46,683 nucleotides of DNA, from IMG/VR virus record IMGVR_UViG_3300045988_122518; one strand, 5' to 3'. Both the position numbers and the translations under genes were made by a program. Numbering within the stretch: position 1 is the first letter of the stretch; the number at the start of each line of letters is the position of its first letter. Below the pieces are notes generated by a model. The model was given only the letters and a program-made list of their open reading frames with translations, had not been told where the DNA came from and searched no databases. The stretch comes from a virus. This document shows positions 16,639-42,674 of this stretch, in pieces.

Positions 16639-17107
16639 ATTTTGATTTCATTTTCCTAAACGTTCCCCGGAATAGACACCCCTACTTTACGCAGAAATAA
16701 CCTACCCCGAGATTTCATTTCAAAATTATATTTCTTTCTTTTATTATATATATATTATAATATATTATTTATTAAATGTCAATTGACTCTTGTAAGAATG
16801 GATTCTCTTCTATTGATTCAGGTCTATCCTCATATTTTATTTTAATTGGTTTTGTCTCATCTGGAACAACAAAATAAATAGTATCATCTTTCATATATAG
16901 ATCAGGTTTTATCATATTTGTTTTATCTATCATCTTATCAAACTATTCTTGCGTTCCTCTTACAAATCTTATTATTGACATATTACCTTTTCCTCCTCTT
17001 ATTACATCTTCATATATCATTACCTTTTACTCCTTTTACTCTCATTACTACCCCTGAATTACCCAGCCGATATATATTAAATATTATCTATTATATATAT
17101 ATTAATA

Positions 17108-17340
17108 GGAACTTTTTGTTCCGAAAATATAGGCAATTCGGAACTAACGGTTCCAAACATAAGGGGCATTTTGGAACTAACGGTTCCGCAGTCCCTAATA
17201 ATTCATCACGTTTTAAATGAATGGAACTAACGGTTCCGAATTTAATGTTAAAATTCAAATTTGTCTTCTTTCGGAACTTTTTGTTCCACTTTATTATTAT
17301 TAATTATCTATTTTTGAATAACAACCTATCCTTTTGGAAC
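17108..17340. repeat. Array of six GGAAC-N5-GTTCC inverted repeats (iteron/operator-like)
   Basis: Copies at 17108-17122, 17140-17154, 17173-17187, 17223-17237, 17273-17287 and 17326-17340. Spacers are TTTTT or TAACG. Centre-to-centre distances are about 32, 33, 50, 50 and 53 bp. Flanked by AT-rich tracts at 16735-16790 and 17075-17107. Confidence 0.8.
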
Positions 17341-17589
17341 TTTTTGTTCCGGAAAATCATTACAGTTATCATAAAAATCATATTTTCCTTCTGCGGTTTC
17401 GACTAAATAGTTATTATTCTTTAAATCATTTATGCCAGCATCAATGGCTTTGCGGACTGCCCTTGCTTCACTCGCCTTTGAATAATCTTTTCCTAACCAA
17501 TTGGCATAGGCGGTCGGATTCATAGTCCAAACAAAATTATTAGTATTACCAGCTAAATATAAATATAATCTTAAACCATTCAATGTCAA
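17326..17589 (-). CDS. Winged-helix replication-initiator / replisome-organizer N-domain-like protein (87 aa to TAG; may extend by TAG read-through)
   Basis: LRLYLYLAGNTNNFVWTMNPTAYANWLGKDYSKASEARAVRKAIDAGINDLKNNNYLVETAEG resembles the wHTH N-domain of phage/plasmid initiators (RepA_N / phage_rep_org_N type). Its 3' end overlaps the iteron array. Its stop is TAG. Confidence 0.4.
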   Translation of the reverse strand: MTLNGLRLYLYLAGNTNNFVWTMNPTAYANWLGKDYSKASEARAVRKAIDAGINDLKNNNYLVETAEGKYDFYDNCNDFPEQKVPKG

Positions 17590-17678
17590 ACTCCCAGTAG
17601 CCTAACCCAACGTAGGAGTGTTTATTGAAGTAAAATTACCACTCTATAAAACTTCTTTATGAATCTTAAATAGGCTCA

Positions 17679-17855
17679 TTATTTCTCGCCCATTAATTCA
17701 TCCAGAGCCTGAACTAACTCCGGAGTCTTTTCGTATATCCAACACATAAAGTTAGGCTTCCGCGGATTCGCGGTTGTTGTTATTGGATATATTCCTTTCT
17801 TTTCTAATTCTAAATATATTCTTAATGAATATATAATTTTATTGGCATTTGGCAT
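17679..17855 (-). CDS. Small ORFan protein (58 aa), minus strand
   Basis: Strong RBS aaaggagtcgctaatATG on the minus strand. Confidence 0.45.
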   Translation of the reverse strand: MPNANKIIYSLRIYLELEKKGIYPITTTANPRKPNFMCWIYEKTPELVQALDELMGEK

Positions 17856-17884
17856 ATTAGCGACTCCTTTAAGTAATTAAAATA

Positions 17885-18442
17885 TTATTCTAAATATTTA
17901 AACGGAGCCAATCTTGATACTTTCTTATTATGTTCCGATTGGAAAATATAATCTAATGGAAGCTGAATTCCATCTTTAATCGGATAAGCATAAAATTCGA
18001 GACAATCTTTGCGTTCTCTTAAATATCCATGATGAACTAATAAGTCAAAATTAAATACAATGTCTTCTATATCTTTACAATACTAAATATCTGTATTCAA
18101 GATATCATTAAAATGAATATAATCTCCATCTTTCTTATTCATTACATAACACCATAATTCAAAATTAATATAATAAGCAAATGTGTATGTGAATAAATAA
18201 AGCGGAACTCCATTATATGCTTTATGTGAAGCCAAAGGCGGAATCTCCCTATTTATTTTAATAGGTTTAGTAAAATCTAATACCGCTCCTGTTTCATACA
18301 AATCATAATTATCAGGACCATTCTTTATAACTTGATAATGTTCCTTTTCAGCAATCTATTCAATATCTTTAACCGCTCTCATACTACCTTTCTTATAATA
18401 GTATTTATCGTGGAAAAAAGTTATCAATTCTTTTTTAGTCAA
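17885..18442 (-). CDS. Minus-strand protein (about 185 aa) intact only if two in-frame TAG codons are read as sense
   Basis: Strong RBS aaaggaggaggac then TTG start. An internal ATG lies at 18382. TAGs at 18360-18358 and 18085-18083 are in frame, and the single frame runs to TAA 17887-17885. The track shows only a 72-aa fragment at 18083-18301. Confidence 0.4.
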
Positions 18443-20976: not shown

Positions 20977-21222
20977 ATGACTGTAATTTTACACAACTTC
21001 CGCGGTATTAAGTATCTTATCAATACTAATAATATCAATAGCGTTAGCTTTTCCGCGGTCGATTCTAAACAATATGCAGATGAGATTGCGGAAGCAGGCG
21101 GGAGTCCCCTCACGCGCATTTACATTGATTGGTATGGCGGTTCTTCCACAAGCATTCTTGCAATTTCCGAAGTGGCTGATGAATTTCTCAATCTTTTTGA
21201 AAACGCGGTTGAAATCTTTTAA
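20977..21222 (+). CDS. ORFan (81 aa)
   Basis: RBS aaggagcatttagATG. Confidence 0.5.
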   Translation: MTVILHNFRGIKYLINTNNINSVSFSAVDSKQYADEIAEAGGSPLTRIYIDWYGGSSTSILAISEVADEFLNLFENAVEIF

Positions 21223-21280
21223 TTTCTAAATATATTATAACAAAAATTTTGGGTAAAATCAATTAATGGAGGAATAATAT

Positions 21281-21496
21281 ATGAGTCGTATCCCTGTTCT
21301 ATTCATTTATGATGAGTCTCGCGATGAAATTTATTGCGCAACAAATCTTGGTGAATCTGATGCGCTTGAAATCACTATGTCTGCTATTGAGGAGAACGTC
21401 GAAGAGCAATTCCAGTGTCATAAGTTCGATGCTCAGATCTATAATAAAGCGCTTGAACATATGATTGTCTATTACGAATATGTTCCCGTTCTCTGA
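21281..21496 (+). CDS. ORFan (71 aa)
   Basis: RBS aatggaggaataatatATG. Terminator at 21498-21536. Confidence 0.5.
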   Translation: MSRIPVLFIYDESRDEIYCATNLGESDALEITMSAIEENVEEQFQCHKFDAQIYNKALEHMIVYYEYVPVL

Positions 21497-25166: not shown

Positions 25167-25200
25167 TCAATAAACATTAGTGAGAGAGGAAATAATAATT

Positions 25201-25500
25201 ATGGAGAAGTTTATTAACGCAATCGTTTTTGATGATGGCTATCACGATAAGTATGTCATCTGTGAAGGTGATATTCATAAGTATAGTTTCTGGCTTTTTG
25301 TTAATAAGATTGCAATTTGTCATAATGAAACTTATATTATTAAAACTATCCATTATGAAGACCTCGAAGAAAGCAATGTCGTAGAAGCCTTTGAAGCAAT
25401 GGATTCTTCTACTGAGTTGTTTCATACTGAAAAGACTGCGAAGGCTTTCGAAATTCTTTGGAATTGCGAAGATGCGGTTGAAGGCATTGATGTTTATTGA
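25201..25500 (+). CDS. ORFan (99 aa)
   Basis: RBS gagagaggaaataataattATG. Confidence 0.5.
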   Translation: MEKFINAIVFDDGYHDKYVICEGDIHKYSFWLFVNKIAICHNETYIIKTIHYEDLEESNVVEAFEAMDSSTELFHTEKTAKAFEILWNCEDAVEGIDVY

Positions 25501-25521
25501 GATTGTAAAGGGGTAATCAAT

Positions 25522-26118
25522 ATGTTTTATTTTGTTCGTTATACTGATAGTTGGGCTGATGAAATGACCATTGACGGTTTCTCCATTATGGACGAAAAGG
25601 AATATGAGCATTATGTTGCAACCGTAAATGCGATTATTGCGGATATTGAGAGCGGTCTGCCGTTTATCTATCAGGTTGGCTCCAATGAGGAAATTGAATA
25701 TAATAACGTCGATGACTTCCTTAGCGCATTTGAAACGTCTGAATTTGAAGAGTATCCCGAAGGCATCGAAATGGTCTTCGGTAAGAAGTTCCCTGAATTT
25801 GGGTTTTTCCCTTACGGGCAGATGCTTGATACTCTTTGGGATCGAGCTAATGGCCTCGAAGTTGGAGATAAAGAATTGATGGAAGAGTATTATCGCATTG
25901 ATTATTACAATTCTATCACTAAGGAACATGTTGGCGATCCTGTATATATTAAAGTAAGGGGATACTCTGAGATTGAGGTTGATGCTCAGATCGAATCTTT
26001 TGAGGAGCATTTTGCCACGGAATATTATAAACAGTATGGTGTATATGTCTATCCTGAGACGGGTCGGATTCCCGAAGACCTTTATAATAAGGAGATGAAT
26101 CTTAATGTCAACGACTAA
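25522..26118 (+). CDS. Acidic ORFan (198 aa)
   Basis: RBS aaaggggtaatcaatATG. Confidence 0.55.
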   Translation: MFYFVRYTDSWADEMTIDGFSIMDEKEYEHYVATVNAIIADIESGLPFIYQVGSNEEIEYNNVDDFLSAFETSEFEEYPEGIEMVFGKKFPEFGFFPYGQMLDTLWDRANGLEVGDKELMEEYYRIDYYNSITKEHVGDPVYIKVRGYSEIEVDAQIESFEEHFATEYYKQYGVYVYPETGRIPEDLYNKEMNLNVND

Positions 26119-30988: not shown

Positions 30989-31149
30989 TGGATAATTTGT
31001 TTATGTGTTATGCGAATCACACTGAGGAACTTGAAAGAATTATCAAGGAAATTAGTGCTGGTGCAACGACTTTCCAGACTGAGCTCACTCTAACAGACAG
31101 CGATATGGAATATATCCGACGAGAAGTGGAGAGGAGACTAAATGGCTGA
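30988..31149 (+). CDS. 53-aa mini-protein
   Basis: TAATG overlap at 30986-30990. Confidence 0.3.
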   Translation: MDNLFMCYANHTEELERIIKEISAGATTFQTELTLTDSDMEYIRREVERRLNG

Positions 31150-32518
31150 ATCTAATGTAATGGGAACTTATAAATTCCCACCTAATGTCTTTGATAAAGT
31201 CTTAGATAAATTTAGTCAAGCAGTTCAAGATGGTAAGTATCATAAGCTTGATTACGTCTTTTGGCGTAAATTAAAGACTACTAAAAATAGTGTTAGGATT
31301 GTTGTCAAATCTGACCTTAATGGTAAAATTTTCTTTGATATTTTTCCTGATACTTATATTATGAATTCTTTCTTTGCTGACGGTATTGATGGTTCTTTTG
31401 GTGAATACTTAGTTGATAATGTTTGTAATATTTTTACAAATGATTATGCGATTGAATGTTCGGAAAAGTTTCTTGAATATAAGATGCGTAGAGCGAAAAA
31501 GACTACTGAAAAGAATAATAATATAAGCAAATATATCAAAGTATATGATAAGACGGATGATCTTGATTATACCAAAGTGTATGACAAGACAGGGTGGATG
31601 GCAGAATTTTCTTGCGCAAATACTATTTCTGACGAAGAAGCTCAGAAAATTCTTGGAGAGTTAAATACTACACCTATTACGATAGTTCCTGATAACGATT
31701 GTATGACTGGAAAGGTTGCTTCGATTAATTCTAACGCAATTTTTGCTACTTCTGCTACAACTACACTTGGTGGTCGAATTGACGCAATTGAAGATAAGTG
31801 CGCTATGATTGATAACGACTATATTGATGGTCGAATCAATAAAGTTTTGAACGAACAAAATACATTTAACAATAATGTTGATAATAAGAAAGGAAATAAG
31901 AAAATGAAGGCGTTTAATTTTGATTTTGGCCCCTGCACCACTGATAACATTCGTATGTCTATGTATGGCCTGGCCGTGAAGAACGCGAATGGCACTTGGG
32001 TTTCTTACAACCCTGAGAGTAAGGAGATTATCGACGTCGATATCTTCAACTTTGATGGCGGTAAGTTCCTTTACAAGATGCCGGTTGCCATCAAGGATAT
32101 CGCCCCTGGTATGGTTATTGTTCATAACCGCAAGGCTATGTTCGTAATTGAGGTTGGCGATAGCGGTATTACGGTTGTTGATCCGCAGGCCGGTGAGGAG
32201 AAGAAGATTCTTCCTACGAAGAATTGTTTCAACTTTAACTTCTATACTCGTGTTATTTCTCTGTTTGACTCTTTTATGAAGAGTCCTGAGAATGCGCCGA
32301 GTGTGGAGAATCCGTTCGGTAATATGCTTCCCCTTTTCATGATGAGTGAGAATAGTGGCGAGTTTGACATGAACACCATGCTGATGCTCTCTATGATGAG
32401 TGGTCAGGGTGGCATGGATTTCTCTAAGAATCCTATGATGATGTATTTCCTTATGAAGGACTCCAAGAACGCGGATGATCTTCTTCCGCTCATGTTCATG
32501 GGTAATCTTTGTAAGTAA
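31142..32518 (+). CDS. Large ORFan protein (458 aa) with a Met-rich C-terminus
   Basis: ATGGCTGA overlap with the upstream gene. Terminator at 32548-32582. Confidence 0.55.
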   Translation: MAESNVMGTYKFPPNVFDKVLDKFSQAVQDGKYHKLDYVFWRKLKTTKNSVRIVVKSDLNGKIFFDIFPDTYIMNSFFADGIDGSFGEYLVDNVCNIFTNDYAIECSEKFLEYKMRRAKKTTEKNNNISKYIKVYDKTDDLDYTKVYDKTGWMAEFSCANTISDEEAQKILGELNTTPITIVPDNDCMTGKVASINSNAIFATSATTTLGGRIDAIEDKCAMIDNDYIDGRINKVLNEQNTFNNNVDNKKGNKKMKAFNFDFGPCTTDNIRMSMYGLAVKNANGTWVSYNPESKEIIDVDIFNFDGGKFLYKMPVAIKDIAPGMVIVHNRKAMFVIEVGDSGITVVDPQAGEEKKILPTKNCFNFNFYTRVISLFDSFMKSPENAPSVENPFGNMLPLFMMSENSGEFDMNTMLMLSMMSGQGGMDFSKNPMMMYFLMKDSKNADDLLPLMFMGNLCK

Positions 32519-32647
32519 ATATAATAAAACCCCTTTCGCAAGAAAGCCCTTTGATTGACCGCAAAGGGCTTTCTTTATTTTTATAAAAAAATATAATATA
32601 ATATATATATAAAGTTAAGAAAGATATTAAAAAGAGGTTGATAAGAT

Positions 32648-34252
32648 ATGGCTAATTTATTTGAGCTCCTTTCCAAAGAAGATTGTGAAAAGATTGAAGG
32701 ATATATCCGTAATTTTGCGGGTCTCGGTGGAGATAGTTCCGATATGAAGGCATCTCTCGATTACATTCTCCGCTTTTGGGCTTATAATAAGCAGAATCTT
32801 TACAAGATGTTGGGAGATAATCTTATCATTTCTCGTAAGGTAAGTTATTCTCGCTCTTATGAAGAGATGAGTGAGGATTTTTATGATTATTTCGGTCGAA
32901 ATAGTGATGGATATGAATTCCGAGATACCTTTAATAATAAGGTAAGAGATCTTTATCTCAGGACAACCATCTCTAATACTCAGTATCTTAATTTGGCAAG
33001 TCTTTTGGATGTTGATCCTTTAATGTCTAATATTTATGATGGTGAATCTTTTAAATTCACTTATAACAATAAAACTCTTATGATTAATAAGGGTATGAAG
33101 CTTAGCAAGATGCTTGGTAAGATGAGTGATATCTTGGAGATTGACCGCGATATCTATGAAAAGTTCCGTATTGCTCATTCTCAGTTCCTTAATCAGAAAA
33201 ATATTTCTGGCGAACTTTGTCTTTCTGTTCATCCTCTTGACTATATCACTATGAGTGATAATAATTGCGGTTGGGATTCTTGTATGAGATGGCAGAATGG
33301 TGGTGGCGAATATCGTCAGGGAACCGTTGAGATGATGAATTCTCCCATTATCCTCGAAGCTTATCTTAAATCTGATAAGGATATGGAAATTTGGTATAAA
33401 GTTGGTAAGCCTGTGATGTGGAATAGTAAGCGCTGGCGTGAGCTTTTCATTGTAGATAAAAGCCTTATTCTTGGTATCAAGGGTTATCCTTATTGTAATG
33501 AAAATCTTGAAAGCATTTGTCTCGCTTGGATCAAGAAGCTCGCTGAACAGAATCTTGGCTTTGGTCCTTATACCAAGTATTTAAATAAGATTCAGAATTA
33601 CAGTAATAATATTATTGGTGAGTTTGATAGAAATATTTATTTCAATCTTGATACCAATTTCATGTATAACGATATCTATTCAGAGCATAATGCTTACGTT
33701 TCCACTAAGATTCCTACGGACGAAAACATTGATCTTAACTACTCGGGTGAATCTGAGTGTATGTGTTGTGGAGAGCTTCTTGATGATTCTCTCTTCGATG
33801 ATAGAGAGAATAACGCGGAAATGACTATCTGTCCAAGTTGCTCGGGTGCAGTAAAGTGCGATAAGTGTGGCGATATTGTTTATGTCGATGACACTTATAA
33901 TGTCGATGGAAAAACTTACTGCGCTTATTGTTATGATGAAAGTACAGAAATTTGTCCTTGTTGCAGAGTCCGCAAAGATTATGATGACATGAAGCAAATC
34001 CGCCTCCGATTCCAGAAGAAGCCAGTTGGATTCTATGTGGATATTTGTTGGGATTGTTGTGGAGATAAAAAAGTAAAAACCTTTTTCAGTGGTGAAATTG
34101 AAGAAGACAGAGACGGTTGGCGCTCCAATTATTATGTCGATGGAGAAACTCTCACTAAAAAGGGTAGAGACCTCTTTGATATCAATGAAAAGGAGTTTAT
34201 TTCTTGGGTTAATGGCACTAACCCAAATCAAAGACCTTCTTTGATTTTTTAA
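32648..34252 (+). CDS. Large protein (534 aa) with a C-terminal multi-CxxC zinc-ribbon cluster; paralog of 36760-38190
   Basis: Shares a core (L/C)SVHPLD(Y/F)...W(D/R)SC...GEYR(Q/A)G...NSK(R/K)WR with 36760-38190. C-terminus has CMCCGE, CPSCSG, CDKCG, CAYC, CPCC, CWDCCG. Confidence 0.55.
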   Translation: MANLFELLSKEDCEKIEGYIRNFAGLGGDSSDMKASLDYILRFWAYNKQNLYKMLGDNLIISRKVSYSRSYEEMSEDFYDYFGRNSDGYEFRDTFNNKVRDLYLRTTISNTQYLNLASLLDVDPLMSNIYDGESFKFTYNNKTLMINKGMKLSKMLGKMSDILEIDRDIYEKFRIAHSQFLNQKNISGELCLSVHPLDYITMSDNNCGWDSCMRWQNGGGEYRQGTVEMMNSPIILEAYLKSDKDMEIWYKVGKPVMWNSKRWRELFIVDKSLILGIKGYPYCNENLESICLAWIKKLAEQNLGFGPYTKYLNKIQNYSNNIIGEFDRNIYFNLDTNFMYNDIYSEHNAYVSTKIPTDENIDLNYSGESECMCCGELLDDSLFDDRENNAEMTICPSCSGAVKCDKCGDIVYVDDTYNVDGKTYCAYCYDESTEICPCCRVRKDYDDMKQIRLRFQKKPVGFYVDICWDCCGDKKVKTFFSGEIEEDRDGWRSNYYVDGETLTKKGRDLFDINEKEFISWVNGTNPNQRPSLIF

Positions 34253-34269
34253 AAAAAATAATATATAAT
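34241..34269 (+). promoter_or_regulatory. Class-2 promoter (TTGATT 34241-46, 17 bp, TATAAT 34264-69)
   Basis: Upstream of the paralog C gene. Confidence 0.45.
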
Positions 34270-34342
34270 ATTTATGTAAGGTAAAGGAAGAGATGCTTCC
34301 TAAAAATAAAATTGTTATTTATGAAAGGTTAAGGTAAAAATT

Positions 34343-34759
34343 ATGACTAATGAAATTAAAGTATCTAAGCGCGATTATCTGACCGCAATTATCGGAGCTA
34401 TGCATACTGGTGAGATCAAGTATGATCCCAATGACGTGATCGCATTTTGCGAGCATGAGATTGAGTTGCTTGATAAGAAGACTGCCAAGGCTAAGGAGCG
34501 TGCGGCCGCCAAGCGTGCTGAGGGCGATGAGTTGACTGAGCAGATTTATAATGTTCTTTATGACGACGAGTTTATGACCATCCCTGAGATCGTCAAGGCT
34601 CTCGGCGATGAGAGTGTTTCCGCACAGCGTGCCAGTTATCGACTCCGCACTCTTGTAGCTGAGAAGCGCGCGGAGAAGACTGAGGTTTCTATCCCGGGCG
34701 CTGATGGCGGTAAGGCTTCCAAGAAAGTGGCTTATAAGAAAATTGTCGCTGAGGACTAA
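34343..34759 (+). CDS. Paralog C of the 10980/13540 family (138 aa)
   Basis: Conserved block AFCEHEIELLDKKTAKAK. Terminator at 34786-34813. Confidence 0.5.
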   Translation: MTNEIKVSKRDYLTAIIGAMHTGEIKYDPNDVIAFCEHEIELLDKKTAKAKERAAAKRAEGDELTEQIYNVLYDDEFMTIPEIVKALGDESVSAQRASYRLRTLVAEKRAEKTEVSIPGADGGKASKKVAYKKIVAED

Positions 34760-34877
34760 GCATTAAATAATTAAATGGACTGAAAATTTTTCAGTCCATT
34801 TTTTCTTGTTATCTGCTCCGACCGGTGCTGGTCGCACATACCGAAAGTCCAAAAGTAAAAAGCCGTTTAGAATTTTC

Positions 34878-34906
34878 TTGACAAAATTAGAGTTTTTTGT
34901 TATAAT
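34878..34906 (+). promoter_or_regulatory. Early-type promoter cTTGACAaaattagagttttttgtTATAAT inside the late region
   Basis: TTGACA 34878-83 and TATAAT 34901-06 with a 17-bp spacer. Confidence 0.5.
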
Positions 34907-34930
34907 TATATTATAAAGGAGTGATATAAT

Positions 34931-35731
34931 TTGAAATATTGTGTTTCTGTGCGTCAACCTGATGTTGTTCGTGAGAAGGCTGATGAGCTTATGGTTAATT
35001 ATAATGATATAAACATTATGTATGATATGATTTAGAAATTTCCTAATAAGCGATATATTATCAGAATCCGCAAAAACGAAGAAGTGAATTGGGAAGAGAT
35101 TGATTCCTTTAAGGATAAAGTCGATCTTATTGTAGCATTTGAAGATATGCTTACTCGTAATGGATGTAATATTGATGTAAAGTATTATTTCGCTTATCCC
35201 GCTACTACATGGGCAGAAGTCCGCGTTCTCCTTGATCTTAAAGTTAGCGAACTTTTCATCGGGGCACCACTTACATTTGATTTGAGACAATTAAATCAAC
35301 AAGCAAAAGTCCCAATTCGTATGATTGCGAATAAATGCTATGACGATAATCTTCCAAGAGAAAATGGAATATGCGGTTCCTACGTCCGACCGGAAGATGT
35401 AGATTATTATGGAACATATGTCTCGACATTAGAATTCGACGAACCCGCACTCTCTAAGGAAGCCGTGCTTTTGGATATCTACCAAAGTGGTCATTGGCAA
35501 GGTAATCTAAACCTTTTATTAACCAATCTAAATTATAATGCGGATAATCGTGGAATCCCCGAAGATTTTGGCCCCAACCGCATCAATTGCGGTCAGCGCT
35601 GTCAGCGACAAGGGACGTGTCATTATTGTGAAACCGCATTTATATTCTCTCGTGTTATAGATAAAGCCGTTCAAGCAAGTAAGCAGAATAATCCTATCCC
35701 CGAGGCGGAAGAGGACTCAATTGACAAATAA
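34931..35731 (+). CDS. Protein (267 aa) with a TTG start and an in-frame TAG at 35033-35035; Cys-rich C-terminus
   Basis: Perfect RBS aaaggag + 8 nt + TTG, immediately downstream of the promoter. The TAG is in frame, with phase checked base by base, and joins a 34-codon N-terminal segment to the 215-aa ORF at 35084-35731. Confidence 0.45.
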
Positions 35732-35782
35732 AAAAAATAATGTTATAATATAAATATAAGATAAAAGATAGGAGAATAAACT

Positions 35783-36889
35783 GTGAGAGGTTTTAAAACT
35801 AATGAACTTTGGTTATTTGAATATCTGGTTCGCTCGACGCAAGATGAGTTAAGGGAATATGTTGCCGATGTATTAAAATCTAAATATACTGAAGTAGTTA
35901 TTACTAAAGAGTATGTTTGTGCAGTTGGCGATATTCCGATTGCTTTAGTGGCTCATCTTGATACCGTGTTTGAGAAACCGGTCAAAGATTTATATTATGA
36001 CACAAGAAAAAATGTGCTTTGGTCGCCTGAAGGTCTTGGCGCAGATGATAGAGCAGGAGTATATGCGATTCTTCATATTTTGAGGAATACATCTTTGCGC
36101 CCTTCTATTATTTTTACCACTGATGAAGAAATTGGTGGATTAGGCGCCGAAGCATTAGTATTACAATATTTTGAGTGTCCATTTCCTGATTTGAAATATA
36201 TTATTCAGTTGGATAGACAAGGCACAAATGATTGTGTGTTTTATGACCTTTACAATCCTAAATTCATCGATTACATTGAATCTTTTGGATTTGTAGAGGA
36301 TTTTGGCACGTTTAGTGATATTAGTGTTTTATGTCCTGAATGGAAAATTTGTGGTGTAAATCTTTCAGTTGGATACAAGAATGAACATAGTCATGTTGAA
36401 ACATTAAATGCGGGTGCTCTTTTTGATACGATTAATAAGGTAATCCGCATGCTCCAAGAGAAAGATATCCCTAATTTTGAGTATTATCGTAATTATCATA
36501 ACATTTGGTTCGATAATGTTTGTAAGAATTTTCCAACTGATGGCGATGGATTCTACGTTCATTGTAGAGGATGCGGTCAGTTATTTAGTGAATATGAAAC
36601 ATTTCCAGTAAAGGGATTAGACGGACATACATGTTTTTATTGTCCTGATTGTATTCCCAGTAATGTTGAATGGTGTGCGGAGTGTGAAGAGGCATTTGAA
36701 ATTGACCCTGCGAACCCACACAGCGAGTATTGTAAAGATTGTATTGGAGGATTAGTCAAATGTCATATGACTTCGACATCGAAAGCATTAGAGAACAGTT
36801 CAACAAAGTCATCAGTTACTCCCAAGGAATCAGTAATCCAAAAACAGAAGAACTATTCGAAAGGTTCCTCGAAGCCAAAAAAGACTTAA
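35783..36889 (+). CDS. M20/M28/M42-type Zn-dependent peptidase-like protein with a Cys-rich C-terminal extension (368 aa)
   Basis: Motifs ALVAHLDTVF, GADDRAG and DEEIGGLGA match the metal-binding H/D/EE positions of the M42 (FrvX/YsdC) and M20 folds. GTG start with RBS taggagaataaactGTG. Confidence 0.45.
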   Translation: MRGFKTNELWLFEYLVRSTQDELREYVADVLKSKYTEVVITKEYVCAVGDIPIALVAHLDTVFEKPVKDLYYDTRKNVLWSPEGLGADDRAGVYAILHILRNTSLRPSIIFTTDEEIGGLGAEALVLQYFECPFPDLKYIIQLDRQGTNDCVFYDLYNPKFIDYIESFGFVEDFGTFSDISVLCPEWKICGVNLSVGYKNEHSHVETLNAGALFDTINKVIRMLQEKDIPNFEYYRNYHNIWFDNVCKNFPTDGDGFYVHCRGCGQLFSEYETFPVKGLDGHTCFYCPDCIPSNVEWCAECEEAFEIDPANPHSEYCKDCIGGLVKCHMTSTSKALENSSTKSSVTPKESVIQKQKNYSKGSSKPKKT

Positions 36890-38190
36890 TTAAATTTTTC
36901 CACGGTCATTTAATTTATGAATGGCCGGAAAAGGTATCTTTTTCCTTAGATGATAAAACCAAAGAACATCGTCTTGAGGAGTTTCTTGAAACAATTAATT
37001 ATACTTATAATAATGAAGACTTAAAAGATTTTATTTCAGTAAATAAAGAAGGATTCTTTGATAATACAGTTATAGATACTTATTTTTATAAGGATAAAAA
37101 GATTCCAAGAGGAATGAAATTAGTTAAGGCTTTTAAGTATTTTGAAGAGAATCCGCGTTCTTTGGAAGATATTCAAAATTATGCAAGTCGTATTATCCAA
37201 GAGGATAAGATTGAGGGAACATTATGTTTCTCAGTTCATCCTTTGGATTTTTTAAGCGTAAGTGAAAATACTTATAATTGGCGTTCTTGCCATGCGCTTG
37301 ATGGTGAATACAGAGCAGGAAATTTATCTTATATGGTAGATAGAAGCACTTTTATTTGCTATTTGCGCGGAGCGGAGAATCAGAAACTTCCGCATTTCCC
37401 CGAAGACGTTCTTTGGAATTCTAAGAAATGGCGTATGCTTCTTTATATGGAAGATAAACGACGCGGTTTGATGGCTGGTCGCCAATATCCTTTTATGACA
37501 ACTAATGCTTTAATTAAAATTAAAGATATTATCAATACTTTTGATAAGACCTTTCAGTTGCGTGATTGGGTAGATGGAGGTATTAACACTGTCTCTAATA
37601 GGATGAGCATTACTTCTTTTGGTGAAGAAACTATCGGATTATCTGAAACATGGATTCCTATTTTATCTCGTTTATATCCTATTGGTGATATTGTTGGAGA
37701 TATTGGCGAGCATACTCTTCAATATAATGATTTGCTTTATTCCTCTTGTTATTTACCTATTTACAGTTTAAAATTGTATTATTATCCATTGGAGACTGAT
37801 CTTCCTCATTGGTCTATTGGTGGTGATGTTCCTTGCTTACAATGCGGTAAAACTGTAATCGAAAGTGGAGAATATATGCGATGCGGAGATTGTGAATTCA
37901 GTTATGGAGTAAACGAAGACGATAACTATGGGTATTGCGCTTGTTGCGGTTCTCGTATAATTCTTGATGAAGCAAATTCCGTAGGCGATGAGAATGAATT
38001 AGTTTGCGATAGTTGTGCGGATACTTATTGTAAACGATGCGAATGTTGTAATAATTTATATTATACAGAAGATATTCACTATCATAAAGGAACTGATATG
38101 TATTTATGTCCTTGGTGCTTTAGAGATGCTGGTGAAGAAAAAGTTAATAATTTTAGGTCTTTAAAAGACTTTATACATAATTTTAGTTAA
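36760..38190 (+). CDS. Large protein (476 aa), paralog of 32648-34252, with C-terminal CxxC clusters
   Basis: ATG 36760 with RBS ggagga + 9 nt. Overlaps the upstream peptidase-like gene by 130 nt in another frame. CLQCGK, CGDCEF, CACCGS, CDSCAD, CKRCECC, CPWC. Confidence 0.55.
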   Translation: MSYDFDIESIREQFNKVISYSQGISNPKTEELFERFLEAKKDLIKFFHGHLIYEWPEKVSFSLDDKTKEHRLEEFLETINYTYNNEDLKDFISVNKEGFFDNTVIDTYFYKDKKIPRGMKLVKAFKYFEENPRSLEDIQNYASRIIQEDKIEGTLCFSVHPLDFLSVSENTYNWRSCHALDGEYRAGNLSYMVDRSTFICYLRGAENQKLPHFPEDVLWNSKKWRMLLYMEDKRRGLMAGRQYPFMTTNALIKIKDIINTFDKTFQLRDWVDGGINTVSNRMSITSFGEETIGLSETWIPILSRLYPIGDIVGDIGEHTLQYNDLLYSSCYLPIYSLKLYYYPLETDLPHWSIGGDVPCLQCGKTVIESGEYMRCGDCEFSYGVNEDDNYGYCACCGSRIILDEANSVGDENELVCDSCADTYCKRCECCNNLYYTEDIHYHKGTDMYLCPWCFRDAGEEKVNNFRSLKDFIHNFS

Positions 38191-38202
38191 GGAGAATTAG
38201 AT

Positions 38203-38508
38203 ATGGCTAAAGGCGCAGTAGCTAAGGAACAAATCGCTAAGAAAATGGCGGAAGTATTTGGCGCTGATTGGATCGGCGAGCGAGATAAAAAGTATTATCT
38301 TTGGGCTAACGAAAATGGTGAGCGAATTCAGATTGCTATTAGTATGACATGCCCAAAGACTCCGATCGGTGAAGTAGGCGCAACCGCGGATTCAAATGTT
38401 TTGAATTTTGAAGATGGGGCAACCGCAGGTGGAGAAACCCCGATTGAAATCACCACAGATGAAAAGAAAAATATTGCCGATTTAAAGGCAAGATTGGGAT
38501 TAAGTTAA
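38203..38508 (+). CDS. ORFan (101 aa)
   Basis: RBS taaggagaattagatATG. Terminator at 38511-38549. Confidence 0.55.
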   Translation: MAKGAVAKEQIAKKMAEVFGADWIGERDKKYYLWANENGERIQIAISMTCPKTPIGEVGATADSNVLNFEDGATAGGETPIEITTDEKKNIADLKARLGLS

Positions 38509-38627
38509 TCTAAAGAGTAATGTCATTTGACATTACTCTTTTTTTATTTAACCAAATTAAATTAATGACTTACCTATAAATTTTTAAATTTTATAGAAAT
38601 AATAAAATTTATAAGGAGGTCATTTAA

Positions 38628-39183
38628 ATGGCAATTCCAAAAGCTATAGAACATATGCGTAGTGGAAGTGGTAGTTTAGAAATTATTCCAATTACTTCTA
38701 CTGATGGATTAACTTACACAGGAACCGCAAGATCTATTAAAGAATATAAAGACGGAATGATTATTGGCCTTATTCCAAATATGAATAATGTTGCGACAAA
38801 TCCAATTACTAATATAACAATAAATATAAATAATTTAGGAGCATTAAAATTAACTCAATATTATATTAAAAAAGAACATTCTAATAATGGATTGGGGTGT
38901 TGGCATTAGAATACTGCTGTAGAAGCAAATTTTCTATATAAAGATGAAGCATTTATCGGATAGATACAATTAGGGTTATCTAGTGGTGATTATATTTTAC
39001 CCATTAATCCAGGATTAGACTTAGCTTAGATTACTAATGGTTCTATGGGGTCTAATTTATCTGTCACCGCTAATTCTTCTTATTTAAACAATAATATTTT
39101 AAGAAATATTAAAGTATCTACTTCAGCACCTACTTCTTCAGATGGAAATGTTGGAGATATTTGGATTTAGTATTTTGCTTAAT
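38628..39183 (+). CDS. Protein (185 aa) requiring read-through of five in-frame TAG codons
   Basis: RBS ataaggaggtcatttaaATG. The frame is open from 38628 to TAA 39181-39183 apart from TAGs at 38907, 38964, 39027 and two further positions. The track stops at 38909. Confidence 0.45.
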
Positions 39184-39198
39184 AAAGGAGGAATTTAA

Positions 39199-40614
39199 AT
39201 GCCAAATATTTATAATCCTTCTGGAACTTCTATAACTGATTATTCTTCTATTAAATTTATTCCAGGAGATATTGTTAATAGTGGCTATTCAGGAGCTGTA
39301 AATCCAATAAAACTTCCAGCGGGGAACTATCAATTGGAATGTTGGGGAGCTTATGGCGGAATTGGCTATTCGGGATCTTTAACGTCATCAACAACAACTT
39401 CATGGATATATATAGGAAGTGGTAATGCAACTAGTTATTTTAACATTAGTAATGATCCAAATTATTATTTTCGTCAAGATGGAAATGACTGGATAGCTAC
39501 TAATGGAGGAATAAATTCAAGTACTGCCACAACTACATTAACTTGTACTTCAGCGGGGACTTATAAAATTTCATATTATTATAAAACTGAAGTAAATTAT
39601 GATAAAGTTACTTTAACTGTTGGAGGAACTACAGTTTTAAATGCGGTTTCTGGATCAAGTTCTCTTACTACCGCAGGTAGTTATTCTTTATCATCAGGAT
39701 CTACTATCGTAATGACTTATACTAAAGATAGCTCAAATTCAGAAACTGGTGAAGAAGTTTATTTTTAGATTTAGAAACAAGAAAATAATACTACTTATAC
39801 TCCTGCAAGTTCAAAAAATAGTTATTGGGGTGGAACAGGAGGATATTCTACAGGAATTCTTTCTTTATCAACTCCTACTTCTATTTATTTATACACCGGA
39901 GGTTAGGGTAGCTATTCAAGTGATAGTGAAAAAGGTAAGGTAGTTAATGGTGGATTTAATGGAGGAGGTAGCTCCAGAATTAGATGGTATACTTCTGCTT
40001 ATACTTCAGGGGGAGGGGGTGGAGGAGCTTCCGACATTCGCATAGGTCAAGATTCTCTTTATGCTCGAGTAATCGTTGCCGGTGGAGGTGGTGGTGGAGC
40101 AGGAGAAAGTAATTCTTCTATTAAATAGGGTGGCGGATTGACGGGTAACTCTGCGGTTGAAGAATATAAGGCTACATAGACTAAAGCAGGAACAAATGGA
40201 TCTTTTGGTCAAGGTGCTAGCGCCAGCGGGTCTACTAATTATAATTATGGCCCCGGTGGTGGTGGCGGCGGCTGGTATGGTGGTGGTGCTTCTACTAATG
40301 TTAGTGATAGCTCTGCTGATTATAGAACTTATAATGGTGGTGGTTCTGGCTATGTATATACTTCATCAACCGCTTCTAATTATCCTTCTGGTTGTTTGTT
40401 AAATAGTAACTATTATTTAACAAATACTTCTACTACAATGGGATATAATAGAACTAATCCTGGAGGGACGTAGGGATATATTCGCATTACTGTATTATCA
40501 CCATTAAATGTAAAAATCAATTCTAATACTTATGCTCCCATTAAAGCGATATACACAAAAATAGATAATACGACTTGGAAAGGAGGAATAACTACATGGC
40601 AACCTATGACTTAA
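39199..40614 (+). CDS. Gly-rich fiber/structural-like protein (471 aa) with seven in-frame TAG codons
   Basis: RBS aataaaggaggaatttaaATG. TAGs at 39766, 39772, 39904, 40126, 40177 and 40471 were phase-checked. Contains collagen-like GGGGGGAG and GGGGGGGWYGGG tracts and the motif CLLNSNYYLT. Confidence 0.5.
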
Positions 40615-41921
40615 CTTCTTCAATTCCTTCTTCTTCTTCTTTAAAAACAGGAGATATATTAAATTGTCCTTATAGTGGAACTTATAAATCTATTACTCTT
40701 CCAAAAGGTACTTATAAATTAGAATGCTGGGGCGCATAGGGCGGTACTGGAAATCCGACTGCTAATATAGGCGGATTGGGTGGATATAGTTATGGAAATA
40801 TAACGCTTGCAGAAAATACTGTCTTATTTTTATATACAGGGTCTAAAGGATATGATAGAGTAGAAACAACCGTTTTTAATGGTGGGGGTATTGCTGAAGG
40901 CAGTAGTAACTATAATTCTGGTAGTGGCGGTGGAGCTTCTGATATTAGAATAAAAACAGACTCTCTTTACGCCCGCGTAATCGTTGCCGGAGGAGGTGGC
41001 GGAGGAGCCGGAGCCAATGAAACTACTTATATTGGAGGATACGGAGGGGGCACATTAGGAGGATCTTCTTCAGCTAATTCTTCTGGGTCTAGCGGTACTG
41101 CTTCTGGAGGTAATTAGACTGGGGCAGGAACTTTTTCTAATCCTGGCTCTTACACTGGATTAACTGGATCTTTCGGTCAAGGTGGTAATTATAGTGGAGG
41201 CGGTGACCGTTCAGGCGGTGGAGGCGGCGGTGGAGGCGGCGGTGGCTGGTATGGTGGCGGAGCAGGATCATATGGAGTTGCTGGGGCTGGCGGTTCTGGC
41301 TATGTATATACTTCATCAACCGCTTCTAATTATCCTTCTGGTTGTTTGTTAAATAGTAACTATTATTTAACTTCTGCATCAACTATCGCAGGTAATTCTT
41401 CATTTATTTCTCCAACAGGATCATTTGAAACAGGTCATGGTGGAAATGGCTATATAAGAATTACTATTTAGTCTATAGCAAATTGGGCTTATTCTACTGT
41501 GTCAATATCTGCTCCCACTTATAACAAATAGAACACCTCTTCTTGGACTTTATCTCCAAGCACTTGTCGATATTTTTCTTTTACTCCTACTATTTCAGGG
41601 GACTTTATTGTTTATTCTAATTCTTCGATAGACACTTATGGATATTTAACATCAAATATTACTTCTCTTAATAGTAGTGGGTAGCCTTCTTCTAATATTT
41701 TAGTTAGTGATGATGATTATGCAAAAAAATATGGCGGTACTGGAGCTAATTTTGGTATTTGTTATAAAGTTACTGCTGGAACTACTTATTATATATATGT
41801 TAAGCCTTATCGTGATAGTACGGCAAATAGTTCAGTATATTTAACTTATTATATGGCTCATCCTGACAGTAGAGTATATGTAAAAATAAATAGCACAACA
41901 TGGAAATTAATAACTAATTAA
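40596..41921 (+). CDS. Paralogous Gly-rich fiber/structural-like protein (441 aa) with five in-frame TAG codons
   Basis: RBS gaaaggaggaataactacATG. TAGs at 40737, 41115 and three further positions. Shares LECWGA[Y/*]GG, DIRI.TDSLYARVIVAGGGGGGAG, SGYVYTSSTASNYPSGCLLNSNYYLT and GYIRIT with 39199-40614. Confidence 0.5.
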
Positions 41922-41928
41922 AAATTTT

Positions 41929-41957
41929 TTGACATTTTTAAAAAAATAATATATAAT
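41929..41957 (+). promoter_or_regulatory. Class-2 promoter (TTGACA 41929-34, 17 bp, TATAAT 41952-57)
   Basis: Followed by a 230-nt untranslated leader before the HNH gene. Confidence 0.5.
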
Positions 41958-42188
41958 ATATTTATAAAATAAAGAAAGACCTTTACAGCAAAAATAACTT
42001 CCAGAATAGACTAAAGGTTAGGTCATAATCCTTCAAGATTAAGTTAATGGTTCAAATCCATTTTCCGGACAAAGTTAAGGTCTTGTTAAGTAAAATCTTG
42101 GCAAAATTTTCAGTCAAATACCGGTCAAAAGAAATAAAAGTATTTTACTGAAAATTTATATATAATAGTAAAATTAGGAGGTTATTAT

Positions 42189-42674
42189 ATGCCAAGAAAA
42201 AGTAAAATTTATTCAGTATCAGATGAAGAATTTCGTAATATTGTAGAAAATTCTGATAGTTATTCAGACTGTTTGAGACAATTAGGATTAGGAACTCGTG
42301 GAGGTTCATCTACTGATATTCTTAAAGAAAGAATTTAGGAATTATCTTGTGATATTAGTCATTTTGGAAATAAGAAAAAAGTTATTGCTCCAAATGTTAA
42401 ATATTCTCTTGATGAAATTTTAATAGAAAATTCTACTTATAAAAATATCGCTCGTCTAAAAACAAGATTAGTTAAAGAAGGCTATCTTGAATATAAATGT
42501 GCTCGTTGTGGTATTAATGAGTGGATGGGTGAACCAATTTCATTACAATTAGATCATTAGAATGGTAAAAATAATGATCATAGACTTGAAAATTTAAGAT
42601 TTTTATGTCCTAATTGTCATTCTTAGACTGATACATATGCTGGAAAAAATAAAAATTTATCAGGGGAACCTTAA
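42189..42674 (+). CDS. HNH homing endonuclease (161 aa) with three in-frame TAG codons
   Basis: RBS attaggaggttattatATG. HNH core LQLDH*NGKNNDHRLENLRFLCPNCHS*TD (DH.NG...N...NL..LCP.CH). TAGs at 42336, 42558 and 42624 are all in phase. Confidence 0.55.

Follow-up and report, generated by a model that had tools for sequence, protein, structure and literature searches.

Tandem ALK/LTK-type glycine-rich, probably fibre-like genes with TAG codons read as glutamine in a large uncultivated phage

The window analysed here, the 46,683 nucleotides (nt) of IMG/VR virus record IMGVR_UViG_3300045988_122518, carries two overlapping plus-strand genes, A and B, that encode glycine-rich proteins and contain in-frame TAG codons. 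The explanation that we favour, and consider probable, is that the window belongs to an uncultivated phage of ~190 kb that uses genetic code 15 (TAG read as Gln) in a subset of its genes, and that A and B are paralogous fibre-like proteins of the ALK/LTK glycine-rich type. The reading of TAG as Gln, and not as Tyr, is well supported by codon exchanges among close relatives and by profiles of standard-code phages. The finding adds one more case to a known phenomenon, the code-15 phage whose late genes are recoded, here with genes for ALK-type glycine-rich, fibre-like proteins.

Two open frames and the residue encoded by TAG

The two genes and the codons discussed below are:

39199..40614, plus strand: gene A, 471 amino acids (aa); predicted ALK/LTK-type glycine-rich domain split by an inserted beta-sandwich; six TAG codons (Gln)
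39766, 39772, 39904, 40126, 40177 and 40471, plus strand: first bases of the TAG codons of gene A (codons 190, 192, 236, 310, 327 and 425)
39352..39354, plus strand: Tyr52 of gene A, TAT in ECWGA-Y-GG; the family residue is Gln, and TAT is one step from TAG
40177..40179, plus strand: TAG, codon 327 of gene A (KAT-TAG-TKAG); conserved Gln of GGTQT, unchanged in 8 lineage members
40596..41921, plus strand: gene B, 441 aa; predicted TNF-like and glycine-rich domain (residues ~20–292), then a C-terminal beta-sandwich; five TAG codons (Gln)
40737, 41115, 41469, 41529 and 41682, plus strand: first bases of the TAG codons of gene B (codons 48, 174, 292, 312 and 363)
40737..40739, plus strand: TAG, codon 48 of gene B (ECWGA-TAG-GG); CAA in the relative L007, canonical Gln in standard-code phages
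41115..41117, plus strand: TAG, codon 174 of gene B (GGN-TAG-TGAG); same profile column as codon 327 of gene A if read as Gln, CAA in L007

A and B lie in different frames and overlap by 19 nt (40596–40614, plus strand), with the GGAGG ribosome-binding site of B inside the 3′ end of A. Ribosome-binding sites of the AGGAGG type precede both starts and homologs begin at the same Met; the coordinates, frames and overlap proposed in an initial annotation of the window hold. TAA and TGA are absent from all 912 in-frame codons of the two genes, against 52 and 43 such codons in the two other frames of 39199–41921. On account of this difference both frames are taken as real: apart from TAG they are truly open, and not by chance.

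Under the standard code the same region falls into short open reading frames (ORFs), and no suppressor tRNA is present in the window. Both observations speak for an alternative in which A and B are pseudogenes in decay, or TAG terminates as usual, and only fragments are made (e.g. 189 aa from A, 47 aa from B). We give this alternative next to no credence. In addition to the open frames, it is effectively refuted by thousands of homologs, including full-length orthologs on contigs of 160–198 kb, by purifying selection that runs across and past the TAG codons, by predicted folds that are confident across the TAG positions, by TAG/CAA swaps at orthologous sites, and by the terminators of the 43 plus-strand genes of the window, which are TAA (30) or TGA (13) and never TAG. 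The initial annotation had regarded the TAGs as sense codons in functional genes rather than as damage, and the open frames, the purifying selection and the TAG/CAA swaps agree with it.

We then compared eight sequences of the same phage lineage, from contigs of ~160–198 kb. The collection proteins show Gln at every TAG, which reflects their translation with code 15 and would be circular as evidence, and the codons were taken from the DNA instead; those homolog loci fail to translate to the query under the standard code. TAG was exchanged with CAA at columns A192, 194, 236, 310 and 338 and B48, 209 and 231 (numbers refer to the alignment; codon 174 of B corresponds to B209). Counted across the lineage and over the recoded genes, CAA was the commonest partner of TAG, with 10 columns, and CAT and TAY came next with 1–2 columns. 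Although CAA lies two mutations from TAG, such a partner is as expected when the step in between, CAG, is synonymous too.

Phages that use the standard code point to the same residue. LECWGAQGG occurs with a canonical Gln, with few exceptions, in 132 standard-code domains (80 unique), the residue at ECWGA-x-GG is Gln in 56 of the 63 members of one homolog set, and some standard-code phages have a canonical Gln at GGTQT. When scored against a profile of standard-code domains, reading TAG as Gln gained 5.0 bits over a masked residue (X) in gene A (next Lys, +2.7; Tyr, −2.1) and 4.4 bits in gene B (next Met, +2.7; Tyr, −1.2). Pfam PF12810 scored gene B at 162.7 with Gln, 158.5 with X and 157.2 with Tyr, and PHROG 10822 scored the neighbouring HNH gene at 190.7, 186.5 and 185.5, respectively.

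Full-length translation of A and B would need an amber-suppressor tRNA, tRNA(CUA). The relative L006 carries one at 21191–21280, ~9.3 kb beyond gene B, where the sampled part of the tRNA array ends; by synteny, this position falls outside the window, past its end. Its exact sequence occurs in four IMG/VR contigs (163–196 kb), two of which hold L006 and L009, and judging from these relatives the genome of the window would carry it too. The tRNA is 90 nt long; U1 and the discriminator G73 look Gln-like. It directly precedes a match (26.1 bits, E 0.026) to the hepatitis delta virus (HDV)-like ribozyme family RF02682, tRNA and match together spanning 21191–21335. A suppressor tRNA with a 3′ theta (HDV-like) ribozyme is the arrangement described by Kienbeck et al. 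2024 (PMC10879173); the present case differs in that it is seen in relatives only, outside the window, and in having a ribozyme match below threshold and a 17-nt insert in the variable region of the tRNA. As long as this tRNA is missing, translation would end at the first TAGs, codon 190 of A and codon 48 of B, and the two proteins would therefore be late products.

Whether TAG could instead encode Tyr, or another residue such as Ser or Trp, has to be weighed at the site where the paralogs differ. As the initial annotation had noted, ECWGA-x-GG has TAT in A (39352–39354) and TAG in B (40737–40739), where the motif becomes LECWGA[Q]GGTGNPTANIGGLGGYSYGNITLAENTVLFLYTGSK with TAG read as Gln. The pair had been offered as a clue to what TAG encodes, and it does suggest Tyr, but the family residue is Gln, and Tyr scores near the bottom in each of the three profile tests. 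We read Tyr52 of gene A as a derived substitution reachable through TAG, and as no clue that TAG means Tyr. Proteins of the gene A type have Tyr, Trp, Gln, Ala or Thr at this position; Tyr is TAT in the DNA of the lineage and the only Trp codon is TGG, both one step from TAG and at least two from CAA or CAG. TAG also alternates with TAT or TAC at A232, B103 and B417, again single-step, non-synonymous changes that are expected at some rate. At column A310, Tyr is the family consensus and the best single-site fit (+1.9 bits), and gene A has TAG or CAA. The 17-nt variable insert of the L006 tRNA(CUA) can be cited for Tyr or Ser as well. A long variable region is a feature of class II tRNAs, which include the bacterial Tyr, Ser and Leu tRNAs. 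Furthermore, non-Gln isotypes have been predicted for ~30% of suppressor tRNAs (Kienbeck et al. 2024). Even so, a residue other than Gln is very improbable in our estimate: CAA is by far the commonest partner codon despite the two changes, the motif positions are Gln in standard-code phages, and by established tRNA identity rules U1 and G73 would fit a Gln tRNA, in contrast to the A73 of bacterial tRNA-Tyr. Tyr and Ser were ruled out by the profile tests together with the tally of partner codons. A comparison of paralogs within one genome can thus mislead, as the TAT opposite TAG did here, whereas codon swaps in close relatives and profiles restricted to standard-code phages identify a reassigned stop without proteomics.

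Duplication, the shared T-TAG-T site and a variable core

The following features bear on the history of the pair:

40342..40421, plus strand: 80-nt block, copy in gene A, encoding GSGYVYTSSTASNYPSGCLLNSNYYL
41292..41371, plus strand: 80-nt block, copy in gene B, at the right border of the variable cassette
40746..41287, plus strand: hypervariable cassette of gene B, its glycine-rich core, delimited by nucleotide identity (boundaries at 100-nt resolution)

The blocks GGGASDIRI, DSLYARVIVAGGGGGGAG, GGSGYVYTSSTASNYPSGCLLNSNYYLT and GYIRIT are present in both genes, as the initial annotation had reported, both products belong to the PF12810 family, and the two genes are paralogs, as claimed there. 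In the explanation favoured here the tandem duplication is ancient. The dN/dS comparison that had been suggested gave an omega of ~0.13 in the ASDIRI...AG block, indicating purifying selection, with a saturated dS of ~1.2 between A and B. A stretch of 80 nt is identical in the two genes, where 0 such matches are expected by chance. Elsewhere in the lineage, the two copies of this block differ at 10–13 of 84 nt, synonymously and with the same peptide, and the identity is therefore the result of a recent gene conversion in the branch of the window and L001. The same differences ruled out that the block, which has a 24–27 nt imperfect palindrome inside, is a conserved recombination or nuclease site in the DNA.

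We next considered the site at which both genes have T-TAG-T. Codon 327 of A falls on the conserved q of 'ggtqta' in the profile of standard-code phage domains only, and codon 174 of B joins it in that column if its TAG is taken as Gln. With an X at codon 174 the alignment of this low-complexity stretch is ambiguous, and plain pairwise alignment of the two genes leaves these codons unpaired. The B ortholog of L007 has CAA in GGTQTG at the column of codon 174. On this basis the two sites are homologous and represent the conserved Gln of the family (GGTQT). Careful alignment had been proposed as a check on the homology, and the pairing emerges from it only through the Gln substitution or the orthologs. 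The initial annotation had gone further and held the amber codon itself to be conserved across the duplication. Only the homology stands. What is conserved at this site is the amino acid, and the codon need not be: codon conservation does not follow, given that dS is saturated, that TAG and CAA swap freely and that B orthologs have CAA. Moreover, TAG accounts for 22 of the 34 Gln codons in the five TAG-containing genes, so that by codon usage alone both paralogs would be expected to show TAG at a conserved Gln in about 4 cases in 10.

These data also bear on the possibility that site-specific selection retains amber codons as translational gates, and that the shared TAG was inherited from the duplication. 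In its favour, A190, A327, B292 and B312 are TAG in 8/8 lineage sequences, 62 TAG columns are unchanged lineage-wide (a count that includes some off-frame ORFs), TAG reaches its 22 of 34 Gln codons in genes whose GC content at third codon positions (GC3) is only 0.08–0.18, and Borges et al. describe gene families in which TAG is preferred to CAA and CAG. We nonetheless regard such selection as improbable. CAA is found in B orthologs at the shared site itself, TAG/CAA swaps are many among sequences that are mostly 85–100% identical in DNA (gene A and the flanks of B), and the relatives sampled are so close to one another that invariance says little. Apart from the saturated dS of the paralogs, local gene conversion between A and B means that a shared codon cannot show identity by descent. 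Finally, AT pressure alone would predict near-equal use of TAG and CAA: both are end points of CAG, TAG cannot proceed to TAA, and near-equal use would then need no selection. The observed 22:12 ratio of TAG to CAA is compatible with this. Full replacement of CAG by TAG was not claimed as evidence of selection either, as 0 CAG among 12 CAA/CAG codons is unsurprising at a GC3 of 0.08–0.18.

The two genes differ in how they vary. Orthologs of gene A are uniformly 84–91% identical. In gene B the cassette has an identity of only 0.25–0.63 to relatives other than L001, and both flanks are mostly at 0.8–0.99; many B homologs show 85–96% identity over only 42–48% of the length of B. Gene B thus combines conserved ends with an exchangeable glycine-rich core, the pattern that a host-range determinant should show. 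Separately, the poly-Gly tract of B (41205–41263) counts 11 Gly here against 7 in L001, which is otherwise nearly identical; this 12-nt difference in a GGN repeat looks like replication slippage.

Predicted fold and probable function of the pair

Two domains flank or interrupt the glycine-rich parts:

39364..39810, plus strand: insertion of gene A, ~residues 56–204, a predicted all-beta domain after the ECWGAYGG strand (boundaries approximate)
41472..41918, plus strand: C-terminal domain of gene B, ~residues 293–441, a predicted beta-sandwich with three TAG codons, well conserved among relatives

With TAG masked as X, the ALK/LTK glycine-rich domain PF12810 (curated gathering threshold 24.5 bits) matched A with 116.6 bits (E 2.4e-33) and B with 156.4 bits. 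AlphaFold models built from homolog alignments had predicted local distance difference test (pLDDT) scores of 86.9 (A ortholog) and 84.7 (B ortholog), and in a Foldseek search of the PDB with the A model the top 19 matches were all ALK/LTK glycine-rich domains. The predicted fold is that of PF12810, a TNF-like beta-sandwich (jelly roll) fused to a polyglycine-II helix lattice. In gene A it is split by an insertion of ~150 residues that resembles CUB and carbohydrate-binding sandwiches (matches to CUB and to CBM29/35/36/86), and the profile match picks up again at residue 205, past the insertion. The C-terminal domain of gene B is like pre-peptidase C-terminal and collagenase collagen-binding domains.

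The initial annotation had described the Gly tracts as collagen-like. Collagen-like proteins are defined by long uninterrupted Gly-X-Y repeats, usually rich in Pro; the longest Gly-X-Y run comprises 4 triplets in A and 5 in B, the tracts are poly-G runs of 6–11, Pro is scarce (14 residues in A, 13 in B), and no collagen family was among the Pfam matches of A and B at E ≤ 0.01. A collagen-like nature was ruled out on these grounds, and the tracts belong instead to a polyglycine-II type ALK/LTK glycine-rich domain. The accompanying description of the genes as fibre-like was a reasonable functional guess, and the structural modelling that had been recommended recovered an ALK/LTK-type glycine-rich fold that also occurs in phage tail components.

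Several known proteins share this predicted architecture. The ALK/LTK structures (7nx3, 7lrz, 7ls0 and 7nx1) have the same jelly roll and polyglycine-II lattice, but A and B are phage proteins without a kinase, an EGF-like module or a cytokine ligand, A has the ~150-residue sandwich after the first motif, and B has the pre-peptidase-C-terminal-like domain. Among phages, gp24 of the cyanophage Pam3 (7ypx) is described as ending in a TNF-like and glycine-rich tip of the tail fibre that recognises the receptor (PMC9608196), and a distal domain of this type, with its conserved glycine stem and variable tips, is the likeness to A and B as predicted. Unlike Pam3 gp24, A and B are without an N-terminal alpha-helical domain for docking and trimerisation, they have no obvious chaperone gene of the gp25 type alongside, and there are two tandem paralogous genes instead of one fibre gene. 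The tail wing brush protein gp33 of the mycobacteriophage Bxb1 (9d93) is similar in fold, and the gp38 adhesin of phage S16 bears a more distant likeness. In BFVD many viral proteins have the same fold, one of them annotated as 'virion structural protein'.

From these likenesses we infer that A and B are probably tail-fibre or receptor-binding parts of the virion. In such a scheme A would be the conserved partner carrying an inserted, sugar-binding-like sandwich, and B would combine conserved ends with an exchangeable, hypervariable glycine-rich core that determines host range. It is also conceivable that A and B are not receptor-binding parts of the virion but other late products, acting for example in cell-wall or polysaccharide binding during lysis, in surface modification or in phage exclusion. 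No recognisable tail genes lie beside A and B in the window, their models lack a helical baseplate-docking domain, and the PHROGs that they match are all of unknown function. In relatives, a cell-wall-binding NAGPA/SPOR protein is encoded ~8.6 kb downstream in the same region, and the C-terminal and inserted domains resemble carbohydrate- and collagen-binding modules that are also found in secreted enzymes. We hold a role outside the virion to be unlikely, although it deserves some weight. The solved phage structures with this fold are tail components (PMC9608196), the gene sits in the slot of the distal tail fibre in both CDMH1 and L023, the gene upstream of A is homologous to a member of a 'tail protein' family, a hypervariable core between conserved ends is typical of host-range determinants, and the BFVD annotation as virion structural protein points the same way.

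Several observations weigh against the overall explanation of a code-15 phage with a pair of fibre-like proteins. A few TAG columns in the lineage alternate with Tyr, Ser, His or Asn codons. No tRNA(CUA) was found by tRNA searches in the window or in L001–L005, the one of L006 has an unusual variable region, and the RF02682 match stays below the Rfam gathering score (26.1 against 44 bits). The structures of A and B are predictions, and both models are all-beta or coil at the N terminus, with no long helices. In addition, Pfam and PHROG gave no structural-protein match among genes 31142–38508, and the window shows no tail module.

The recoded module, its surroundings and two codon-usage classes

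The module that contains A and B is delimited by the following features:

38512..38541, plus strand: terminator-like hairpin with a 13-bp stem and a T run, closing the TAG-free gene set at the left edge of the module
38628..39182, plus strand: 184-aa gene, the first of the recoded three-gene module, with four in-frame TAGs and a GC3 of 0.14
41929..41957, plus strand: perfect promoter-like site TTGACA-17-TATAAT directly after B, bordering the module on the right and opening the tRNA array

The gene just upstream of the hairpin (38203–38508) has no TAG, and the promoter-like hexamers are unchanged in 7 lineage members. Together with A and B, 38628–39182 would form a recoded three-gene module bounded by the hairpin on the left and the tRNA-array promoter on the right. 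The product of 38628–39182 is homologous to that of a small gene of the standard-code phage L023 (8830–9369; BLASTP E 9e-11, 33% over 98 aa) which precedes a glycine-rich gene pair and matches PHROG 2189 'tail protein'. In L023 the pair consists of two large proteins with two glycine-rich domains each, located between tail-fibre-like genes and the endolysin, and in the Clostridioides difficile phage CDMH1 the glycine-rich gp30 comes after the tail fibre gp29 and before the holin. Since L023 has both the pair and the homologous small gene, the tandem glycine-rich pair with its preceding small gene is a conserved module of recoded and non-recoded phages alike.

The genes at 31142–38508 are of unknown function save for one M28/M20-like peptidase, and ten genes of the left half, also scanned against Pfam and PHROG, were mostly of unknown function with no structural hallmark. 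Megablast of 31000–42000 against GenBank phages gave no match, which suggests that the lineage is undescribed in that collection. Among these TAG-free proteins, those of 534 aa (32648–34252) and 476 aa (36760–38190) look like mutual paralogs: they share the motif C[LF]SVHPLD[YF] and Cys-rich C-terminal parts, and the 476-aa protein matches PHROG 18912, a family of unknown function. Close to the gene for the 534-aa protein, additional genes of 298 and 310 aa are present in L001 and L005, respectively, and that of L001 is rich in TAG (6 TAG). Also on the plus strand, 25174–25500 and 25501–26118 are same-frame ORFs with just one TGA between them, and the opposite strand has a long ORF at 25177–26010.

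The tRNA array after B is broken up by TAG-containing homing endonuclease genes of the HNH (42189–42674, 3 TAG) and GIY-YIG (45480–46139, 4 TAG) types. Close relatives differ in these genes; the HNH gene of the window, for example, is replaced by a GIY-YIG gene in L003. Directly after B lies a tRNA-like gene (42000–42070, plus strand; Rfam tRNA 46.2 bits) with a 6-nt anticodon loop, to which ARAGORN assigns a 2-base anticodon. Counterparts occur in L001 (11393–11463), L002 (11381–11451), L006 (11954–12024) and others. Promoter and tRNA are 99% identical in 7 lineage members, and the loop varies between CUUCAA, AUUUAA and CUUUAA; read as triplets, these loops give UCA or UUA, both anticodons to stop codons. 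A further tRNA at 45289–45364 (plus strand; loop CUCAUAA, i.e. CAU), 2 nt after the tRNA-Met at 45212–45287, was missed by ARAGORN and scored 39.1 bits with Rfam.

Codon usage separates the recoded genes from the rest. The five TAG-containing genes have 12 CAA, 0 CAG and 22 TAG codons and a GC3 of 0.08–0.18, against 31 CAA, 50 CAG and 0 TAG and a GC3 of 0.25–0.60 in 13 long TAG-free genes. When all TAG-free plus-strand ORFs are taken, GC3 is 0.23–0.75, again with no overlap with the multi-TAG genes (e.g. 38628–42674 and 45480–46139, against 920–38508 for the TAG-free ORFs), and L001 shows the same split apart from a few small genes. The recoded set comprises the fibre-like module and the homing endonucleases and, in relatives, also the NAGPA/SPOR cell-wall-binding gene. 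On the minus strand, an ORF block in the 16–20 kb region (16772–18382) has a GC3 of 0.17–0.25 and in-frame TAGs (1, 4 and 2); at the same place the GC skew reverses locally and GC dips to 0.33.

Recoded gut phages using code 15 are described by Borges et al. 2021/2022, and Gln insertion at UAG is reported from proteomics by Peters et al. 2022 (PMC9523058). Like them, the present phage has in-frame TAGs that align with Gln and no TAG terminators, a recoded subset of genes (fibre-like, cell-wall-binding and homing endonuclease genes) next to genes compatible with the standard code, low GC, a large genome, many tRNAs and, in lineage members, tRNA(CUA). Partial recoding, according to Borges et al., is concentrated in late structural and lysis genes and an intron endonuclease, and temporal control is proposed; the recoded set here matches that pattern. 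What may set the present phage apart from them is that the division into recoded and non-recoded genes coincides with a complete GC3 split. One might speculate that A, B and the other recoded genes make up a 'late' translation class with a tuning of its own, linked with the 6-nt-loop tRNA as a further non-canonical decoder, and that recoding within such a class changes the substitutions reachable from conserved Gln (Tyr and Trp at ECWGA-Q-GG). We rate this joint reading as distinctly doubtful. Of all the observations, only the GC3 split and the odd tRNA might change current understanding.

In practice, A, B and their neighbours need translation with code 15, as they otherwise appear as fragments in annotation. 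The module is in line with published suggestions that phages use recoding for their late genes, and it leaves current understanding unchanged. It adds to the probable host-range determinants of large gut phages a tandem, ALK-type glycine-rich pair with a swappable core.

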